Source: a virus
Taxonomy: Duplodnaviria > Caudoviricetes
Reading direction: 5' to 3' (one strand)
Length of the DNA: 55,529 nt
Virus record (IMG/VR): IMGVR_UViG_3300025030_000131
Span: 1 to 55,529 of that record
In this document: positions 2,529 to 55,245 of the stretch, piece by piece
Position numbering within the stretch: position 1 is the first letter of the stretch
Layout of the letters: each line of letters begins with the position of its first letter
Notes under the pieces: generated by a model
The model's database searches: none
What the model was told of the DNA's origin: nothing
Seen by the model: only the letters and a program-made list of their open reading frames with translations
Made by a program: the position numbers and the translations under genes

Positions 2529-2756
2529 ATGATGGCAGAGAAAATGATTACCTACTTTGGCGAACCCGCCCGCGTTGCATGTGATGAATTATGCACAAAG
2601 GCATGGGGTATCAATAATCGTCCGAAAGTCGAATTGAGCGACGACGAAGACGATTACGAATATCTCGCAGACAGCGAATTACCCGAAGCACCCGCAGACC
2701 CTGGCACGTATGAAGGCGGGCGCAGGGCGTTTTCAATTCCTGCACCATTGGGGTGA
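2529..2756 (+). pseudogene. Cassette 5 gene, probably 3'-truncated; no downstream attC
   Basis: RBS AAAGGTG; no R'' complementary to GTTGGGC found downstream; sequence appears to switch to an unrelated fragment near 2720. Confidence 0.45.
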
Positions 2757-2932
2757 TTTTGCAACAGACGGTTTTCGCATCCATCTGGACTCCTCCCTCA
2801 CCCGCCGCACGATCAAGGATGTGGAGGCCCCGGACTTCTCCGCCCCCTATGCACTTCCCTCCCCCATCCCAATATTGGGCAGGTTAGGGCTTTGGAACCC
2901 GCCACCGAATATGCAACTTCCATCATCTATTA

Positions 2933-2960
2933 CAAACAGGCTGAAATAAGCCTGTTTTTT
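2933..2960 (+). terminator. Rho-independent terminator closing the cassette array
   Basis: AAACAGGCT-GAAATA-AGCCTGTTT followed by a T tract. Confidence 0.7.
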
Positions 2961-3020
2961 ATTGGGGGAATTTATAGAATATATGTTCTAAATATGATAT
3001 AAGTTGTCCATACAATGGGC

Positions 3021-3048
3021 TTGACTACGCTTCACAACCTGTTATAAT
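3021..3048 (+). promoter_or_regulatory. Sigma70-type promoter
   Basis: TTGACT-16 bp-TATAAT. Confidence 0.55.
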
Positions 3049-3119
3049 TGGGGTTGTAAAGCGTTGGCGTGTAGTTTGACAATAACCCCCAAACATGGAA
3101 AAGAAAAGAGGCTATAAAC

Positions 3120-3560
3120 ATGAAAACAAATGAAATTCCCGCAATTAGAACCGAATCACTTCTCGCTGATGAGTTGAGTGAAAAAAGAATCGGCTACAAA
3201 GTGGTCTGCTCAAAAAATACGAAGTCATTCTCTCCTGCCACGTCATCTGCGCTACAACGTATCACATACCGGCTCCATCGAGAGACCCGTCAGATACGCG
3301 GCGAGTTTGGCCCGTTGGCAGTGTTTGACACGCTCGAACACGCAGAGAGGTTTTTCGTGGATTATGGCGACCACATTCTGCGGGTGGAATATGAACCGTC
3401 GGATGAGGACGAGTTGTGGAAGAAAAACCCGCCATCTTTTGTAAAATCATGGCGCGGCTATTCGGCGCAATCAAATGGCACAAGTGAAAAATCCCTGGAC
3501 ACCTGCCCAGCCGGGACAATACTGGCGTCCTCGGTCTATGTGTTGGAGATCATAAAATGA
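3120..3560 (+). CDS. Hypothetical protein
   Basis: 146-aa ORF with RBS AGAGG; ATGA overlap with the next gene. Confidence 0.7.
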   Translation: MKTNEIPAIRTESLLADELSEKRIGYKVVCSKNTKSFSPATSSALQRITYRLHRETRQIRGEFGPLAVFDTLEHAERFFVDYGDHILRVEYEPSDEDELWKKNPPSFVKSWRGYSAQSNGTSEKSLDTCPAGTILASSVYVLEIIK

Positions 3561-8993: not shown

Positions 8994-11984
8994 ATGATAG
9001 CAATACCCGACCTGCAATGGTCAACAGCCAAAGAAATTCAAACAAAAAACGGTCCGCGCATGTTGCGAACCGCTGAGCCTACCCCCGATTTTTGGGAGTC
9101 CTGGCGCTCAAACAAAGATGCTCTTAAATTATTGGGAGTATCCTGTTCGCGCGATGAACGCTCCGGCGAATGGAAAATATGCTGGTGGCAGGAACTTACC
9201 GCCGAAACAAAACAGGAGCGCGCCGCATCGGTAGAGGCGTCGCGTGCCGTAAACGCAGAAATCGAACTTCCAAAACCGGATGGGCTGGATTACATGCCTT
9301 TCCAACGTGCCGGTATACGATATGCGCTTGATCGCCAAAATGTTCTAATTGCCGACGAAATGGGACTCGGTAAAACCGTAGAGACAATCGGCATTATCAA
9401 TGCAGACCCAGCCATTGCCAGCGTAGTTATTGTTTGCCCCAAATCCCTAAAGCTCAACTGGAAAAGGGAACTGGAAAAATGGCTTACCCGCCCGCTTTCG
9501 ATTGGTGTGGTAAACAATTCATGGCTCGCCTCAGATATTGTCATTCTGAACTATGAAGCGACTGGTAAATTTTCTGAACAACTCAAGGCGCATGAGTGGG
9601 ATGCGGTGATTGTAGATGAATGTTTTGTTGGAAATACTCTAATCGAAACCATCGAGGGTTCATGTCAAATAAAAGATTTACACCCTGGTATGCGCGTTGC
9701 GTCCTTCAATTTTTCAAGTAATGCGGTGGAATACAAAAAGATTTTGTATGTGAATCATCGACCAGCACCAAATATTTTATACAAAGTGGCTGGAAATGTA
9801 AGCACAGGCAACCATCCATATTATACAGAGGAGAGCGGTTATGTTAAGGCAAAGGAAATCTGTGGAAAGACTGTGCGAGCGTTGCGAAGTGTTATTTACA
9901 ACCCCGTCAAAGGGGAAGAATACCGCACGTTTTTGTTCGAGGAGATGCGTCAATATGGGAAACTCGTACGGCAAGAAACAAGTGCACAAAACGTACACGG
10001 CGACATGTCAGGAATGCGGGAAGGAGTTTATTCGAAGGGTTTTTGGACTCAGGTTTTGCAGTACGTATTGTTCTGCAATTTGGAGAGTAAGAACCATTAT
10101 CCATCCAGCCAAAAAGAACCCCAGCACTTTTCGAGAAAAAATTTCGAGCGGATTGAAAAGGGCTCATCACGAACGTCCTGGGTGGGCAAAAGAATCATCG
10201 AGGCGGATGAAAGAAAACAATCCAATGCTCAACGCCGACGCGCGCGAAAAAATGAAACAATCACTGACCGGGCGTACGTTTTTGGCGCGGGGAGGAAACG
10301 GAACGATTACGAGCCAACAAAAGAAACTTTTGAGCGCATTAGGATGGAGCGAGGATTGGTTAGAATATCCAATCAAGACGGCTTTAGCAAGCAAGAAATT
10401 CAAATCGCTTCCGAATTGCTACAAGGTGGACATAGCCAGCCCGAAACACAAATTAGCCATAGAGGTAGATGGCAAAACTCACAAACTGAAAAAATGGAAT
10501 TTTCTGGACAAACGAAAGACGGAGATTTTGAATTATTTAGGGTGGACGGTATTGAGATTTACGAACGAGGAAGTGGATCAGAATTTGAGCAGGTGTGCTC
10601 AGACGGTTTTGTCTACAATATCGAAGTAGAGGACAATAACAACTATTTTGCAAATGGAATATTAGTCCATAATTGTCACTACATCAAAAACAGCAAGGCA
10701 CAGCGCTCTAAAAATGTAAAATCAATACCATCACGCAGAAAAATCAGATTGACCGGGACACCAATCGTCAATAGGCCGATTGAACTTTATAACATCATAG
10801 AAGATTTACATAATGGTTTTGGTTCGTTTTTCTCGTTTGCCAAACGCTATGCCGGCGCACACAAAAATGGCTTCGGTTGGGACTTCTCAGGTGCTCAAAA
10901 TCTGGATGAACTGCAAAAACGATTACGAGAAACAATCATGGTGCGCCGTTTGAAAAAGGATGTACTCACAGAACTCCCACGGAAAATCCGTCAGATTGTG
11001 GAGGTGGAAGCCGACACTCCCGCCGCAAAACGGGCGGTAAAATCAGAACAGACTCATGAATCTGCGTCCGAAGAGAGACTGTCAAATCTCCGCGTATCTG
11101 TTGAGTTAAGCAAGGCGGAATCAGAGGATGCGTATAAATCAGCAGTTGCACGCTTGACAGAGGCGTCGCAGGTTGATTTTACTGAAATGGCCCGCTTGCG
11201 CCACGATACTGCTATGGCAAAAGTTCCCGCTGTGATAGCGCATATTACAAACGCGCTGGATGACAATGACAACAAAATTATTGTCGCCATCCACCACCAC
11301 GATGTAGCCGCCGCGCTTATGGATGGCCTGGCAGAGTTCTTTCCGGTTATTTTGACTGGCGAAAATAGCGAACAGGAACGAACTGCATCAGTGGACTCAT
11401 TTCAAAACGATCCGAAGGTGCGCGTGTTTATCGGCTCGATCACTGCCGCAGGAGTTGGGATCACCCTGACAGCTTCCTCGCATGTAGTGTTTGCCGAATT
11501 AGACTGGGTGCCGGGGAATATCTCGCAAATGGAGGATCGCGCTCATCGTATTGGTCAAACCGAAACGGTACTGGTGCAGCATATCGTATTATCCGATAGC
11601 CTGGATGCACGGATGGCAAATGCGATTATTTCAAAACAAAATGTGATAGACAATGCGCTTGATATTAACCATCCCGAACGCTCCGCGCCGGTGTATGAGC
11701 CAAAAAATAAAAGCGCATCTCATGGAGCGTCAGTATCCGAAATAGAGAAAATTGCAGAGACATTATCAACCGAACAATGTGCAATGATACATAATCAATT
11801 GCGTTATCTCGCCGGCATGGATGCCGACCACGCCAGCAGCTTGAATGGAATTGGATTCAACAAAATAGATACGCAGATTGGTCATGACCTGGCCGGGCGT
11901 GAGTGGCTTACTCCTAAACAGGCTGCGCTTGGAATTAAAATCTGTAAGAAATACCATAAACAGTTGATTGATTGGAAGGCATAA
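8994..11984 (+). CDS. SNF2/HARP-family helicase, intein-containing
   Basis: ADEMGLGKT (motif I), DE|CH (motif II, split by the intein), LTGTPIVN, MVRRLKKDVL, QMEDRAHRIGQ; RBS AGGAGA. Confidence 0.92.
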   Translation: MIAIPDLQWSTAKEIQTKNGPRMLRTAEPTPDFWESWRSNKDALKLLGVSCSRDERSGEWKICWWQELTAETKQERAASVEASRAVNAEIELPKPDGLDYMPFQRAGIRYALDRQNVLIADEMGLGKTVETIGIINADPAIASVVIVCPKSLKLNWKRELEKWLTRPLSIGVVNNSWLASDIVILNYEATGKFSEQLKAHEWDAVIVDECFVGNTLIETIEGSCQIKDLHPGMRVASFNFSSNAVEYKKILYVNHRPAPNILYKVAGNVSTGNHPYYTEESGYVKAKEICGKTVRALRSVIYNPVKGEEYRTFLFEEMRQYGKLVRQETSAQNVHGDMSGMREGVYSKGFWTQVLQYVLFCNLESKNHYPSSQKEPQHFSRKNFERIEKGSSRTSWVGKRIIEADERKQSNAQRRRARKNETITDRAYVFGAGRKRNDYEPTKETFERIRMERGLVRISNQDGFSKQEIQIASELLQGGHSQPETQISHRGRWQNSQTEKMEFSGQTKDGDFELFRVDGIEIYERGSGSEFEQVCSDGFVYNIEVEDNNNYFANGILVHNCHYIKNSKAQRSKNVKSIPSRRKIRLTGTPIVNRPIELYNIIEDLHNGFGSFFSFAKRYAGAHKNGFGWDFSGAQNLDELQKRLRETIMVRRLKKDVLTELPRKIRQIVEVEADTPAAKRAVKSEQTHESASEERLSNLRVSVELSKAESEDAYKSAVARLTEASQVDFTEMARLRHDTAMAKVPAVIAHITNALDDNDNKIIVAIHHHDVAAALMDGLAEFFPVILTGENSEQERTASVDSFQNDPKVRVFIGSITAAGVGITLTASSHVVFAELDWVPGNISQMEDRAHRIGQTETVLVQHIVLSDSLDARMANAIISKQNVIDNALDINHPERSAPVYEPKNKSASHGASVSEIEKIAETLSTEQCAMIHNQLRYLAGMDADHASSLNGIGFNKIDTQIGHDLAGREWLTPKQAALGIKICKKYHKQLIDWKA
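9621..10673 (+). mobile_element. Intein (351 aa) inserted in the DECH motif
   Basis: Block A CFVGNTLIET, block B STGNHPYYT, blocks F/G VYNIEVEDNNNYFANGILVHN, +1 residue Cys. Confidence 0.92.
9841..10629 (+). CDS. Zn-finger + DUF559/Vsr-like endonuclease nested in the +1 frame of the intein
   Basis: CERC/FCSRRC and CQEC/FCSTYC motifs; YKVDIA...LAIEVDGKTH...DKRKTEILNYLGWTVLRFTNEEV; RBS GAGGAG at ~9827-9832. Confidence 0.85.
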   Translation: MLRQRKSVERLCERCEVLFTTPSKGKNTARFCSRRCVNMGNSYGKKQVHKTYTATCQECGKEFIRRVFGLRFCSTYCSAIWRVRTIIHPAKKNPSTFREKISSGLKRAHHERPGWAKESSRRMKENNPMLNADAREKMKQSLTGRTFLARGGNGTITSQQKKLLSALGWSEDWLEYPIKTALASKKFKSLPNCYKVDIASPKHKLAIEVDGKTHKLKKWNFLDKRKTEILNYLGWTVLRFTNEEVDQNLSRCAQTVLSTISK

Positions 11985-40454: not shown

Positions 40455-42665
40455 TTAGTTCACCTTTCCTTGTTCCTGAGCCGCATAGTTCAGGAGTAGA
40501 GAGGGAGTCGCCAAAATATCCTCGTCCCCGGCTTCCCCGCCGTTCGTGGCGGAATTAACGAACCCGCCGAGTGCGGCATAGTTGGTGGGACGATAGGACG
40601 TGTCGAGTTTCTCCAACACACCCAGGGTCATCCCGTTCAATACGGCCTCATCGAAGGGGCAGGCTTTATTGACGATCAGCCGCGCGACAACTTCCTTCTT
40701 TTTGGCTTCGGCTTCGGCGGCGGCGTTTTGCGCCATTGTGGTAGCCGCTTGCACACCCTCCTGAATGGTTTTGATGCCATTCGCAAGGGCCTGAATACTG
40801 GCAGGAACATCGGTGAGCGATTTGAGCAGAGCCGCAAACTTATCCACTCCGCCAGCCTCATTCACTACTGACTCAAGCCCGGTCAGTGTGGGGGAGAGGG
40901 CAGGGGCGGCGGGAGTTACGGAAGCGGTCTTGCCTTTGTCGTCAAACGACACATTCCATCCTGTGTTATTCAGGATTGTTTGGATCAGCTTCTTGATCTC
41001 ATCCATCTGGTTTTTCTCCTTGTTGAAATTTGGAAACAAATTAACAAGCCAGTTCGTAGGCTGACTTGGGGCTTGTGAATTGACATACCCTCCCCCGCTT
41101 TTATAGAACGGGACCTTCAGGAATACCTTGTCCCCATTGACCAGGGTTATATCGGTGATCTCCATGTCGAAAGGCTCGAAGGTATCCGCCGGGATCTCGT
41201 CGTCCTTGCCGATGTAGGCAATGGTGATGTGAGGGATAAAGCCGTGATCCGATGGGGTTTTGACCCCCTTCCAATCCAGATTACTTGAAAGCGTTTTGTA
41301 CAGTAGGGGAAGTCCGGGGCTGTCAAAGGTGAGGACAAAGGCATCCTGTTCCCCGCCGGAAATAAAGCGGGCTAATCCCTGCACCTGTCCCGCAACCTTT
41401 GGCTGATATTCGGCCGTTTCAAACATGGATTTCAATACCTGAATGGCATCCATGTCAGAGGTCTCACCCAAAAAGGCCAGCGTCATGTGAAGGTTGTCAT
41501 AGACTTCATCGGACATGAAGGGGAATTGAGCCTTGATCTTTTCCTTGATCGTATCGGGTAGCATGAAGGCGATCATGCTATTGGATGAATAGTCGGGATC
41601 GTCGGCGGCGTTCTCGAAAATGGCGTAGTTTTTCTTGACCCATCCCTCGCCTTTTTTCATGTAGCCGGCCCGCTTGCAAGCGCCCCAGGCTTTTTTAGCG
41701 GCAGTTTCCTCGTCATCACCGTCGGCCTTTGCCTTTTTATGGACTTCCTCCCACATCTTCTTCATTTTTTCAGGCATGTTTTCATTCATCATATTTTGAA
41801 TGTCCGCATACACATCTGCGCGATTCATCATTAAAATTTTCTTCGCTAAATCTTCAATCCTGCTTTCAATCATTTTCTTTTCGCCGGGCTTCAATTTTCC
41901 CGCCTTAAGTCTTTCTTCCAACAAATCCAACATGGCCCTTTCTTTTGTTCCTGCGCCACGCCGCTTATCCACCGCCGAATCACCTCCTCCCTCCGATGTG
42001 CTTCCGCCGACCTCACCTTTACGGCCTTTGTGCCACGGATGTGTTGTCGCATTTTCCAGTGACAGCAAATTATAAAAAAGCATACTGTTATTCATACAGT
42101 CCTCACAATTGTTGATGGCGGCTGAATTGCGATTGATCCCGCAGCCGTCCTTGATCGAGCAGGCTCCGGCTTCGTCCGGCAGCACCGCGATATGATCCGG
42201 GTGGATTTCACGCTGGACTCCGATGTAGGGCAGGCCGTTGTGTTTGCCTGGGATTTGATCTATATTGGCGTAATAGCCTGTGGAGGTTTCGATGATCTTA
42301 CCCTCTAGAATATCATCGTGGATTTGTTTGCCTTCCTCGGATGAAAGCAGGATCGCCTTGTCGAGCCAGTACTCTCCTGTTAGGCGGCGGTTGGCCGAGT
42401 CCAGCGATGCGCCAAAGAACCTGCCGAGTATGGGAACATCAGGGACTGGGACTCTGGCTGATCCGTTGTTTTGTTTGGGGTGGCGTAGGACGATAGGGAC
42501 TCCATCCCAGTCTTTTACAAAGGCCCCGAATTCATCCATTGGGACAAAGAACTTGTTTAGGACTCCCTCTACAATGGTCACACCCTTGACAACAAGATAC
42601 TCCTTGCCATCGAAGGTTTCAATTCTATGGGGGGTAAAGGGACTGAGGTTTGCGAAAGTGTGCAT
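40455..42665 (-). CDS. DUF2213 prohead protease/scaffold fused to ChaB-like and 2H phosphoesterase domains
   Basis: PIVLRHP, ETSTGY, PDHIAVLPDEAGACSIKDGCG; EETAAKKAWGACKRAGY.K....WVKK; LHMTLAFLG and FIPHITIAY. Confidence 0.8.
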   Translation of the reverse strand: MHTFANLSPFTPHRIETFDGKEYLVVKGVTIVEGVLNKFFVPMDEFGAFVKDWDGVPIVLRHPKQNNGSARVPVPDVPILGRFFGASLDSANRRLTGEYWLDKAILLSSEEGKQIHDDILEGKIIETSTGYYANIDQIPGKHNGLPYIGVQREIHPDHIAVLPDEAGACSIKDGCGINRNSAAINNCEDCMNNSMLFYNLLSLENATTHPWHKGRKGEVGGSTSEGGGDSAVDKRRGAGTKERAMLDLLEERLKAGKLKPGEKKMIESRIEDLAKKILMMNRADVYADIQNMMNENMPEKMKKMWEEVHKKAKADGDDEETAAKKAWGACKRAGYMKKGEGWVKKNYAIFENAADDPDYSSNSMIAFMLPDTIKEKIKAQFPFMSDEVYDNLHMTLAFLGETSDMDAIQVLKSMFETAEYQPKVAGQVQGLARFISGGEQDAFVLTFDSPGLPLLYKTLSSNLDWKGVKTPSDHGFIPHITIAYIGKDDEIPADTFEPFDMEITDITLVNGDKVFLKVPFYKSGGGYVNSQAPSQPTNWLVNLFPNFNKEKNQMDEIKKLIQTILNNTGWNVSFDDKGKTASVTPAAPALSPTLTGLESVVNEAGGVDKFAALLKSLTDVPASIQALANGIKTIQEGVQAATTMAQNAAAEAEAKKKEVVARLIVNKACPFDEAVLNGMTLGVLEKLDTSYRPTNYAALGGFVNSATNGGEAGDEDILATPSLLLNYAAQEQGKVN

Positions 42666-53976: not shown

Positions 53977-55245
53977 TTATTTCAACCTTTCAATCTTTAT
54001 TCCGGGGAATGCGTCAGTCATCCTTTGGAGTATGACGGCGCAATACGATTCGCTTATCTCTAATCCGCGTCCTTTGCGGTTTAGATTCTGGCAGGCTACG
54101 AGAGTCGTGCCTGAGCCGCAAAAGTTGTCTACAACAATATCACCTTCATCCGTATGGTTTAGCATAGCATTCATGGGTAATTCAACTGGCTTTATTGTTG
54201 GATGGTCGGGCGAGTGAAGTGGTTTATTTACATTCCAGGTTGATGTAGTAAATCCGCGTTTGTATCTCTTGTGTGTTTTTACCCACGTAAACAAAATGGG
54301 TTCGTGCTGATATTCATAGTCCAATCTTCCGAGCGAGAATGTCGGGGAGTTTTTTACCCAATTCAGAACGTGCCTTATCTCTAAGCCGGCATTCATCATC
54401 ATCATCATCATCAATCCCAACGAACCGCCCTGAGGACTGCACACAAACACAGAACAATCATCGGCTAAATAATTCTTTATCAAAGTAAATGCAGACAAAA
54501 GCATCGCGCCTAAATCTTCTTTCTCGCTGTCTTGGTCTGATTCTATGTCTGTTAAATTCCTTCCAGAAGGCTGGAAGGAATTTAACATCCTATTCTTTGC
54601 ACCAATCGAAACGCCATAAGGCGGATCAGTAAATAACAACGTTGCCTTCTCTTGCCTCATTAGTTTTTGAATATCTTGCTCACAGGTTGAATCCCCGCAT
54701 AACAATCTATGCTGACCTATGGCAAATAAGTCACCTTTGCGAACTTTCCATTTCTTCAACAACTCCGCCACCCTGTCTGTCTGCGGCTCTGCATCCGCGT
54801 TTTCGTCGCCCATGTCGAGGCCGGCTCCGAGCAACTCTTTTTCCGAAAATCCCCAATCCAGCAGGTCTGGTATTTCAAAGTTATCAGCCAGCTTATCAAA
54901 ATCCCATTCACCCGTATTTTTTCTCAGGCGTATGACGACTTCCTCCCGTTCCTTCTCGGTCAACTTGCGGGACGGGATACGCACATCTACCAGTGTACCA
55001 GGCGATACTTTGTTGATCTGCAATTCGACCATCAGTCTTTGATGGCCGTCAAGCAGGGGCAGCCTCTTCGCGCCATTCGCGGGCGCGGCGGCCACATACG
55101 GAATGACGTGATCGAATTTATTGATACTCTTTGATAATTCCCGTGCGTCGCTCTTCGATATTTTTACGGGATTCTTTTCCCACTCAATCAGGTCTTTCAA
55201 CTTGACGCGCTTTGTAGTCCATTTGATCTTATCTTTCTTTGCCAT
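53977..55245 (-). CDS. ParB-like N-terminus + N4/N6 DNA methyltransferase
   Basis: KNPVKI, LDGHQR; HRLLCGDST, TDPPYG, HPTIKP, DNFCGSGTT. Confidence 0.88.
   Translation of the reverse strand: MAKKDKIKWTTKRVKLKDLIEWEKNPVKISKSDARELSKSINKFDHVIPYVAAAPANGAKRLPLLDGHQRLMVELQINKVSPGTLVDVRIPSRKLTEKEREEVVIRLRKNTGEWDFDKLADNFEIPDLLDWGFSEKELLGAGLDMGDENADAEPQTDRVAELLKKWKVRKGDLFAIGQHRLLCGDSTCEQDIQKLMRQEKATLLFTDPPYGVSIGAKNRMLNSFQPSGRNLTDIESDQDSEKEDLGAMLLSAFTLIKNYLADDCSVFVCSPQGGSLGLMMMMMMNAGLEIRHVLNWVKNSPTFSLGRLDYEYQHEPILFTWVKTHKRYKRGFTTSTWNVNKPLHSPDHPTIKPVELPMNAMLNHTDEGDIVVDNFCGSGTTLVACQNLNRKGRGLEISESYCAVILQRMTDAFPGIKIERLK

Follow-up and report, generated by a model that had tools for sequence, protein, structure and literature searches.

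What kind of element interrupts the helicase gene of the phage genome fragment IMGVR_UViG_3300025030_000131, and what is encoded by its second open frame? The window, as we call the whole 55,529-nucleotide (nt) stretch of this IMG/VR record that was analysed, has PHROG matches to terminase, portal, head and tail-fibre genes, and DNA matching it is present in groundwater metagenome runs, with no RNA run listed for the region. On its plus strand, positions 8994-11984 form a single frame of 996 codons without a stop, the product of which, a SNF2-family helicase of 996 amino acids (aa), matches the Pfam families SNF2-rel_dom (expectation value, E, 4.2e-31) and Helicase_C (E 1.9e-11). An intein splits its motif II, in the order ..VIVDE/CFVGNTLIET...NYFANGILVHN/CHYIKNS.., where slashes mark the intein borders, and within the intein a second open reading frame (ORF), shifted by +1, runs from 9841 to 10629. 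We consider the element to be, very probably, a mobile intein in which the homing endonuclease has a gene of its own, overprinted in the +1 frame. A first-pass annotation of this DNA had proposed as much, and the helicase intein with its splicing blocks, the +1 ORF, and the GAGGAG motif and ATG in front of it all lie where it had placed them.

Which features identify the inserted part of the helicase frame as an intein? It is a class-1 intein of 351 aa (9621-10673, plus strand), located between the DE and the CH of motif II, with borders set by comparison with 18 other loci. Its first residue is a cysteine (9621-9623, after DE) that is invariant across the 16 aligned inteins of alignment A2; block B carries the TxxH motif as TGNH (..STGNHPYY..), with H65 nearly invariant in the same alignment, and the likewise invariant N351 completes a terminal His-Asn (..ILVHN/CH, 10673/10674) that is followed by Cys at +1. 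In the AlphaFold2 (AF2) model of the intein frame, pLDDT (its predicted score in the local distance difference test) is 82-94 for residues 1-89 (Hint N-lobe, 9621-9887, plus strand), below 50 across the middle (residues 90-303), and 78-91 over residues 304-351 (Hint C-lobe, 10530-10673, plus strand; ..FRVDGIEIYERGS..VYNIEVEDNNNYFANGILVHN). Compared by VIA-align, the predicted model yields Hint-fold Z values of 17.9 for 2lwy, 17.4 for NpuDnaB, 17.1 for the NrdJ-1 split-intein fusion, 16.0 for gp41-1 and 15.9 for the Spl DnaX mini-intein, with about 129 residues superposing on solved inteins and bacterial intein-like (BIL) domains at 1.6-2.2 Å (119 residues for gp41-1); the C-lobe also has a sequence match in the PDB, to the C-block of the Spl DnaX mini-intein (E 2.7e-4). 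Both ends of the intein, residues 1-89 and 304-351, are predicted with confidence to form the Hint splicing fold, and the helicase precursor would splice in cis, with the 214-residue linker looped out and the DECH box restored. At 10637-10681, several metagenome contigs match just the last 35-40 nt of the intein and the junction, continuing into unrelated sequence on both sides, which suggests that other inteins with a near-identical C-terminal block may exist in the same communities.

The linker between the lobes (residues 90-303, 9888-10529, plus strand) is free of stops and predicted to be disordered; it has no match in Pfam, PHROG or the PDB, and structure comparison gave no meaningful fold match. 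The first-pass annotation had seen no recognisable LAGLIDADG or HNH motif in the middle of the intein; its length of about 260 aa has to be reduced to about 214 for the unstructured part. The nuclease ORF extends beyond the linker on both sides: its start overlies the last 16 codons of the N-lobe, and its last 34 or so codons overlie the C-lobe, so that 10530-10629 doubles as the nuclease C-terminus. At these two ends, as the model has it, the intein frame encodes folded Hint strands and must be more than stop-free there. The earlier suggestion that this frame only has to stay open accordingly holds for the linker, which evolves as described below, and fails at the ends of the overlap.

The +1 product supplies what the intein frame lacks. 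The gene (9841-10629, plus strand, with a TAG stop at 10627-10629) encodes a homing-type endonuclease of 262 aa, with zinc ribbons followed by an EDxHD/Vsr-like (DUF559) domain. A search of both frames against Pfam finds PF04480 (DUF559) in the +1 frame only, at residues 192-260 (E 3.8e-14; 52.9 bits with a cutoff of 20.6), and PHROG 1271, labelled 'HNH endonuclease', matches residues 6-109. The N-terminal part contains two CxxC..CxxxC zinc ribbons and a conserved RMKENNPM motif. Among 18 aligned nuclease sequences, the zinc-ribbon cysteines C56, C59, C73 and C77 are invariant, as are D197, D210 and D223, and E208 and H214 are conserved in at least 90%. In the alignment, these Glu, Asp and His residues match the E-D-H-D of the EDxHD family as set out by Taylor et al. 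(2011; PMC3239194). The AF2 model of the nuclease has a mean pLDDT of 83.5, and its first three Foldseek ranks are chains B and A of 3r3p (I-Bth0305I) and the DUF559 protein 3hrl (probability 1.00, TMt 0.61-0.70, with 0.61 for 3r3p), with Vsr (1cw0, 1vsr) ranked below them. The first-pass description of the product as a zinc-finger protein with a DUF559/Vsr-like nuclease domain holds. In a phmmer search against the PDB, 3hrl was the single match (E 2e-4); a direct sequence link to I-Bth0305I was rejected, as 3r3p went undetected, and the relationship is one of predicted fold only.

Is the double open frame more than a coincidence? In the present phase, each helicase codon joins the third base of a nuclease codon to the first two of the following one, so a helicase stop requires a T-ending nuclease codon in front of a codon starting with AA, AG or GA. 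The nuclease gene has 88 codons with such starts, and not one is preceded by a T-ending codon (0/88), as opposed to a T-ending share of 30% among the codons that precede other codons (P about 2e-14). When synonymous codons were shuffled, none of 5000 versions left the helicase frame free of stops, the mean being 14, and the third frame of the plus strand holds 19 stops over the overlap. All 19 loci tested gave the same outcome, with L002 the sole locus to yield any stop-free shuffles (6/5000), and in the corresponding frame of the controls, the free-standing nuclease genes L013 and L031 and the in-frame L027, there are 30-36 stops. The 789-nt overlap with both frames open, as noted in the first pass, is thus more than chance: the openness of the helicase frame is kept by selection.

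These counts also bear on the possibility that the nuclease is really an in-frame domain of the intein, put out of frame by two compensating indels in the assembly. The same nuclease does occur in frame within the intein of a Mu F-like protein (L027-L030), yet assembly errors would not clear stops from 88 junctions or produce a frame that no shuffle reproduced; the same +1 phase is found in 33 other loci from independent projects, and contigs of three runs from three studies match the region gap-free, with 0-3 differences and no indel listed. These contigs cover 9455-10068 and 10103-11379 (run X3), 9636-9843, 10021-10339 and 10319-10642 (run X5), and 9761-10145, 10121-10309 and 10454-10604 (run X7), each with 0 gaps. 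The check used contigs rather than raw reads, at low depths (3-7), and X3 stems from the same study as the likely source sample; a soil run, X9, was left out because it covers parts of the helicase without 9794-10593. We attach next to no probability to an assembly error, and the compensating indels that the first pass had named as a danger were found in none of the independent contigs.

How, then, does selection act on the two frames? Between L020 and L021, differences outside the overlap number 145, 105 and 318 at the three helicase codon positions, the usual third-position peak, whereas inside the overlap the peak moves to the helicase first position, which is the nuclease third (37, 10 and 9 for L020/L021; 96, 46 and 42 for L015/L020; 115, 71 and 62 for L001/L002). 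The spectrum switches at the nuclease start, and the Hint N-lobe upstream of it (zone A) peaks at host third positions. In 12 of 12 pairs, divergence is lowest where the end of the nuclease is superimposed on the Hint C-lobe; these pairs are not independent of each other, and the distant ones among them are roughly aligned. Among relatives, the core overlap has a ratio of nonsynonymous to synonymous substitution rates (dN/dS, NG86) of 0.10-0.19 when read in the nuclease frame and of 0.8-2.9 when read in the helicase frame, and the extein has one of 0.12-0.14, given where dS was computable, with dS saturated in several pairs and with estimators that are biased in overlapping genes. Despite this bias, the contrast between the two frames is large: in relatives, the nuclease frame is under purifying selection and the intein frame is relaxed, which agrees with the two-frame composite selfish element envisaged in the first pass.

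The same data speak to a reading in which the middle of the intein frame, residues 90-303, is a functional domain in its own right and both frames encode working proteins throughout. This part is rich in Arg, Lys and Glu and has a few conserved columns in the intein alignment (L267, Q268, R281), yet these columns overlie invariant nuclease residues, and with its low pLDDT, the empty database searches, a dN/dS near or above neutrality in the host frame and a substitution peak at host first positions, a functional middle appears extremely improbable. A further alternative is that the +1 ORF of the window is a recently dead relic, homing having ended and the intein frame alone being of consequence, as the homing-cycle model predicts decay after fixation. 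Against this, the ORF is complete, with its start, its Shine-Dalgarno motif and all conserved zinc and EDxHD residues, its 262 codons are still open in a frame otherwise expected to collect stops, and purifying selection in relatives is strong; we regard a relic as unlikely.

Where does translation of the nuclease begin? A Shine-Dalgarno-like GAGGAG (9828-9833, plus strand) precedes the ATG at 9841 with a spacer of 7 nt. In all 19 loci, an ATG follows the upstream +1 stop and precedes the first CxxC, with a joint chance of about 2e-8 to be read with the caveat that the loci are not independent, and a motif of the GGAG, GAGG or AAGG type was seen by eye at a distance of 6-9 nt ahead of the ATG in 13 of them (window included; 12 of the 18 others). 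Ribosomes would start independently at GAGGAG-7 nt-ATG and make the nuclease. Alternatively, a programmed +1 ribosomal frameshift would yield N-extein, Hint N-lobe and nuclease as one fused product, for which there is room, since the +1 frame is open from 9802, 13 codons upstream of the nuclease ATG. An ATG in the short leader of every locus and the ribosome-binding motifs in most, GAGGAG among them in the window, are not what such a fusion calls for; no shared slippery motif was noticed, although no dedicated search was made, and RNA structure around the start (fold of 9790-9880) is not significant (z 0.52). Frameshifting is accordingly very unlikely. Nor does the same fold support a hairpin with a regulatory role at this start, which was considered as well.

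Several points weigh against an overprinted, separately translated and still active nuclease gene, in addition to the estimator bias mentioned above. Pfam recognises in the intein frame of the window just the Hint-type end blocks, all below their cutoffs (PT-HINT 26.1 against 27.7; Intein_splicing 24.1 against 35.8); the inteins of relatives exceed the Intein_splicing cutoff (L008 47.6, L014 39.1, L017 44.9). The Foldseek E-values of the nuclease are weak, 8.2e-3 for 3r3p and between 8e-3 and 4e-2 across the top ranks. By eye, 6 of the 19 loci have no obvious Shine-Dalgarno motif, and it is on this motif and the ATG that the proposed independent initiation is based. The pairs and loci used for selection are not phylogenetically independent, several coming from one clade (L014-L026), and the selection and homing tests were made on relatives with 28-59% nuclease identity to the window, so a recent inactivation of the window copy would leave no sign in them. 

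Within the main reading, the constant phase may have a simple reason, argued from the genetic code, namely the removal of stops at synonymous third positions. As NNT and NNC are always synonymous, each T/AA, T/AG or T/GA can be removed in the +1 phase at no cost to the nuclease, whereas in the other phase a Met in front of an A-starting codon, as in KMK or the conserved RMK of RMKENNPM, would force a TGA.

The layout is not peculiar to the window. The same arrangement, always in +1 phase, is present at 34 loci: the window, 6 isolated-phage records, 22 IMG/VR viral contigs and 5 genome contigs. Among isolated phages, tblastn with the nuclease matched 40 records, each under a coding sequence (CDS) named 'helicase' or 'hypothetical', from which one record was inspected for each of six groups (Vibrio phages CP-T1, 104E43.1, 159E43-1b and 1.194.O, Pseudomonas phage MR14 and Corynebacterium phage phi673). 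In 6/6, the match lies in the +1 frame of an uninterrupted frame of 879-995 codons, and in 6/6 (L001, L002, L003, L041, L042 and L043) the nuclease has no CDS annotation of its own, just the long helicase or 'hypothetical' ORF being annotated. The IMG/VR loci (n=35) divide into 22 overprinted in +1, 4 in frame (L027-L030, one element) and 9 that are free-standing or weak matches, and the genome contigs (n=7) into 5 overprinted and 2 free-standing. At all 34 overprinted loci the +1 ORF is intact, so the disruption in homologs that the first pass had named as a refutation was not seen there. Hosts comprise helicases of the SNF2 and ResIII/DEAD types, fusions of helicase and methylase, and clamp-loader ATPases, and in all of them the intein sits at, or a few residues from, the DE of motif II or Walker B; the eight overprinted hosts scanned with Pfam have Hint or intein models and no DUF559 in the host frame.

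Some of these loci deserve mention in their own right. In L008 (2325-4370) and L010 (2382-4493), the overprinted intein-nuclease occupies the Walker B motif (LLDE/CH) of phage clamp-loader (DnaX-like) ATPases and is therefore not confined to helicases. In L027 (1447-3645; also L028-L030), the nuclease family stands in frame within the intein of a phage Mu F-like head protein, with DUF559 and Phage_Mu_F both matched by Pfam in a single frame; the canonical version thus exists in nature beside the overprinted one. L038 (2684-3496) has a zinc-finger/HNH-type ORF (2743-3480) over nearly the whole of which a second plus-strand frame of 271 codons is open, with no long host ORF around it.

Is the element mobile? 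In four related pairs, nucleotide identity is 96-100% within the intein and 77-94% in the flanking helicase, and in a fifth it is 85-93% and 60-75%, respectively, the step coinciding with the intein borders. Such a step is a homing signature at the sequence level, to be expected if intein and nuclease had recently been transferred laterally as a unit. Intein-less alleles are available for comparison in L039 (ITDE/CHLIKNS) and L040 (IVDE/AHLIKNS), which are uninterrupted and 69-70% identical to the C-extein of the window (10674-11984, plus strand); the latter begins with CHYIKNS, the remainder of motif II, and holds Helicase_C. The N-extein (8994-9620, plus strand), taken from the ORF translation, ends with the motif II Asp-Glu (..VIVDE) and contains SNF2-rel_dom in two stretches, the best of which covers residues 104-209. 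In co-infecting relatives, the nuclease would cut intein-less helicase alleles near the DE/CH codons, and recombinational repair would then copy intein and nuclease together. In L013 (2806-4937), a free-standing nuclease homologue lies directly 5' of a helicase gene with a 1-nt frameshift right after GATGAA, the Asp-Glu codons of its DExH box, which is the position at which the overprinted intein family is inserted; an assembly error, a scar left by repair and a protected target are all possible explanations of the frameshift.

Where the family came from is less readily discerned. The first-pass annotation had it that a free-standing endonuclease gene invaded a mini-intein, a scenario that goes beyond what our analysis shows: the nuclease tree orders no states, and an in-frame version exists in L027. 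Of the 27 inner branches of this tree, 5 are starred and 14 drawn open, and the free-standing L013 and L046 as well as the in-frame L027 fall inside the overprinted clade. With these branches, the tree cannot tell whether overprinting had a single origin or which state is ancestral. A broader proposal may nevertheless be made, in which the +1 phase is a rule of the family and no accident, being the only one that lets synonymous third-position changes alone rid the host frame of every stop, the roughly 34 codons at the 3' end specify folded parts of two proteins (the end of the nuclease core and the Hint C-lobe), the family stands as an unbroken counterpart to the split inteins known from 'fractured genes' and may be their precursor, and it amounts to a large store of unannotated homing nucleases directed at DExH and Walker B codons. 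Taken as a whole, this proposal is tentative, and we would put it somewhat short of an even chance.

How does the family relate to known systems? An overlapping-frame endonuclease inside a contiguous intein is a layout already in print, and after the preprints of 2025-26 it will not surprise intein specialists, which counts against the newness of our reading. An out-of-frame endonuclease in a cyanobacterial dnaX intein was reportedly noted by Gorbalenya in 1998, as later preprints have it. These preprints describe a cyanobacterial dnaX intein with a LAGLIDADG endonuclease in a '+2ORF' (Phillips, DeSimone and Gogarten, bioRxiv 10.64898/2026.09.14.751524) and, in actinophage inteins, genes for LAGLIDADG and for VSR-like endonucleases on the antisense strand and for endonuclease VII-like ones in 'frame 3' (Gosselin, Arsenault and Gogarten, bioRxiv 10.1101/2025.01.02.630785). 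Such non-canonical inteins resemble ours in having a contiguous intein frame and an endonuclease as an overlapping ORF with its own Shine-Dalgarno motif and start, an in-frame middle without recognisable fold, dN/dS low in the endonuclease and high in the intein frame, and signs of continuing transfer. They interrupt genes for DNA polymerase, minor capsid, terminase and thymidylate synthase, whereas here the hosts are helicases and clamp loaders, at motif II or Walker B; unlike the cases given there, the nuclease here is EDxHD/Vsr-like, on the same strand and in +1, and its carriers are Vibrio, Pseudomonas and Corynebacterium phages along with many uncultured ones. In the literature on inteins with overlapping, DUF559, Vsr-like or EDxHD endonucleases, we came across no mention of an EDxHD gene lying on the same strand in +1 within the inteins of helicases or clamp loaders, although the supplementary tables of the 2025 preprint might list such genes.

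Related in components are the fractured genes (Dassa et al., 2009; PMC2677866), in which a Vsr-like endonuclease has its free-standing gene between the two parts of a split intein. They share with our family the type of nuclease, its location on the same strand between the Hint lobes and its hosts in phage DNA metabolism, and in both the 3' end of the nuclease overlaps the C-terminal intein part, by 6-69 bp there and by about 100 nt here. The host frame of fractured genes is broken, with an N-intein that ends in a stop and two polypeptides that trans-splice, and a non-coding spacer of 27-51 nt with hairpins precedes the nuclease; here one open frame is predicted to give a cis-splicing precursor, and there is neither a spacer nor a significant hairpin. 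The best catalytic-fold match, I-Bth0305I (Taylor et al., 2011; PMC3239194; PDB 3r3p), comes from a group I intron in recA and carries repeats of NUMOD type. It is similar in size (266 aa, compared with 262 here), in its conserved E, D, H and D, and in the order of an N-terminal DNA-binding region, which is putative in our nuclease, and a C-terminal catalytic domain; it differs from our nuclease in that the latter has two zinc ribbons and a gene overprinted on an intein. Lastly, the ShiLan insertion in a phage methylase hides an HNH endonuclease that is out of frame (Arsenault et al., 2025; PMC11855218) and is alike in that the endonuclease ORF lies in another frame of an insertion left open in the host frame. 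It has no splicing domains and its nuclease is of HNH type, whereas here a complete Hint fold flanks the overlap.

What can be learned from such an arrangement? Annotation pipelines miss the overprinted nuclease gene. As a clean case of dual coding over 789 nt, the overlap follows a measurable rule, in that no T-ending codon stands before AA, AG or GA. The family links contiguous inteins, out-of-frame endonucleases and the split inteins of fractured genes, and, in connecting these three types, bears on how inteins gain and exchange endonucleases. For practical use, it offers compact Hint domains that are predicted to tolerate a disordered insert of 214 residues, and EDxHD nucleases whose natural targets would lie in helicase motif II.

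Elsewhere in the window, two further ORFs on the minus strand attracted attention. One, of 736 aa (40455-42665), lies amid structural genes and has PHROG 'RNA ligase' matches in its middle (E 2.5e-12). The other (53977-55245) encodes a protein of 422 aa in which a region resembling ParB, at the N-terminus, is joined to a DNA methyltransferase domain (PHROG 498, E 3.3e-84).

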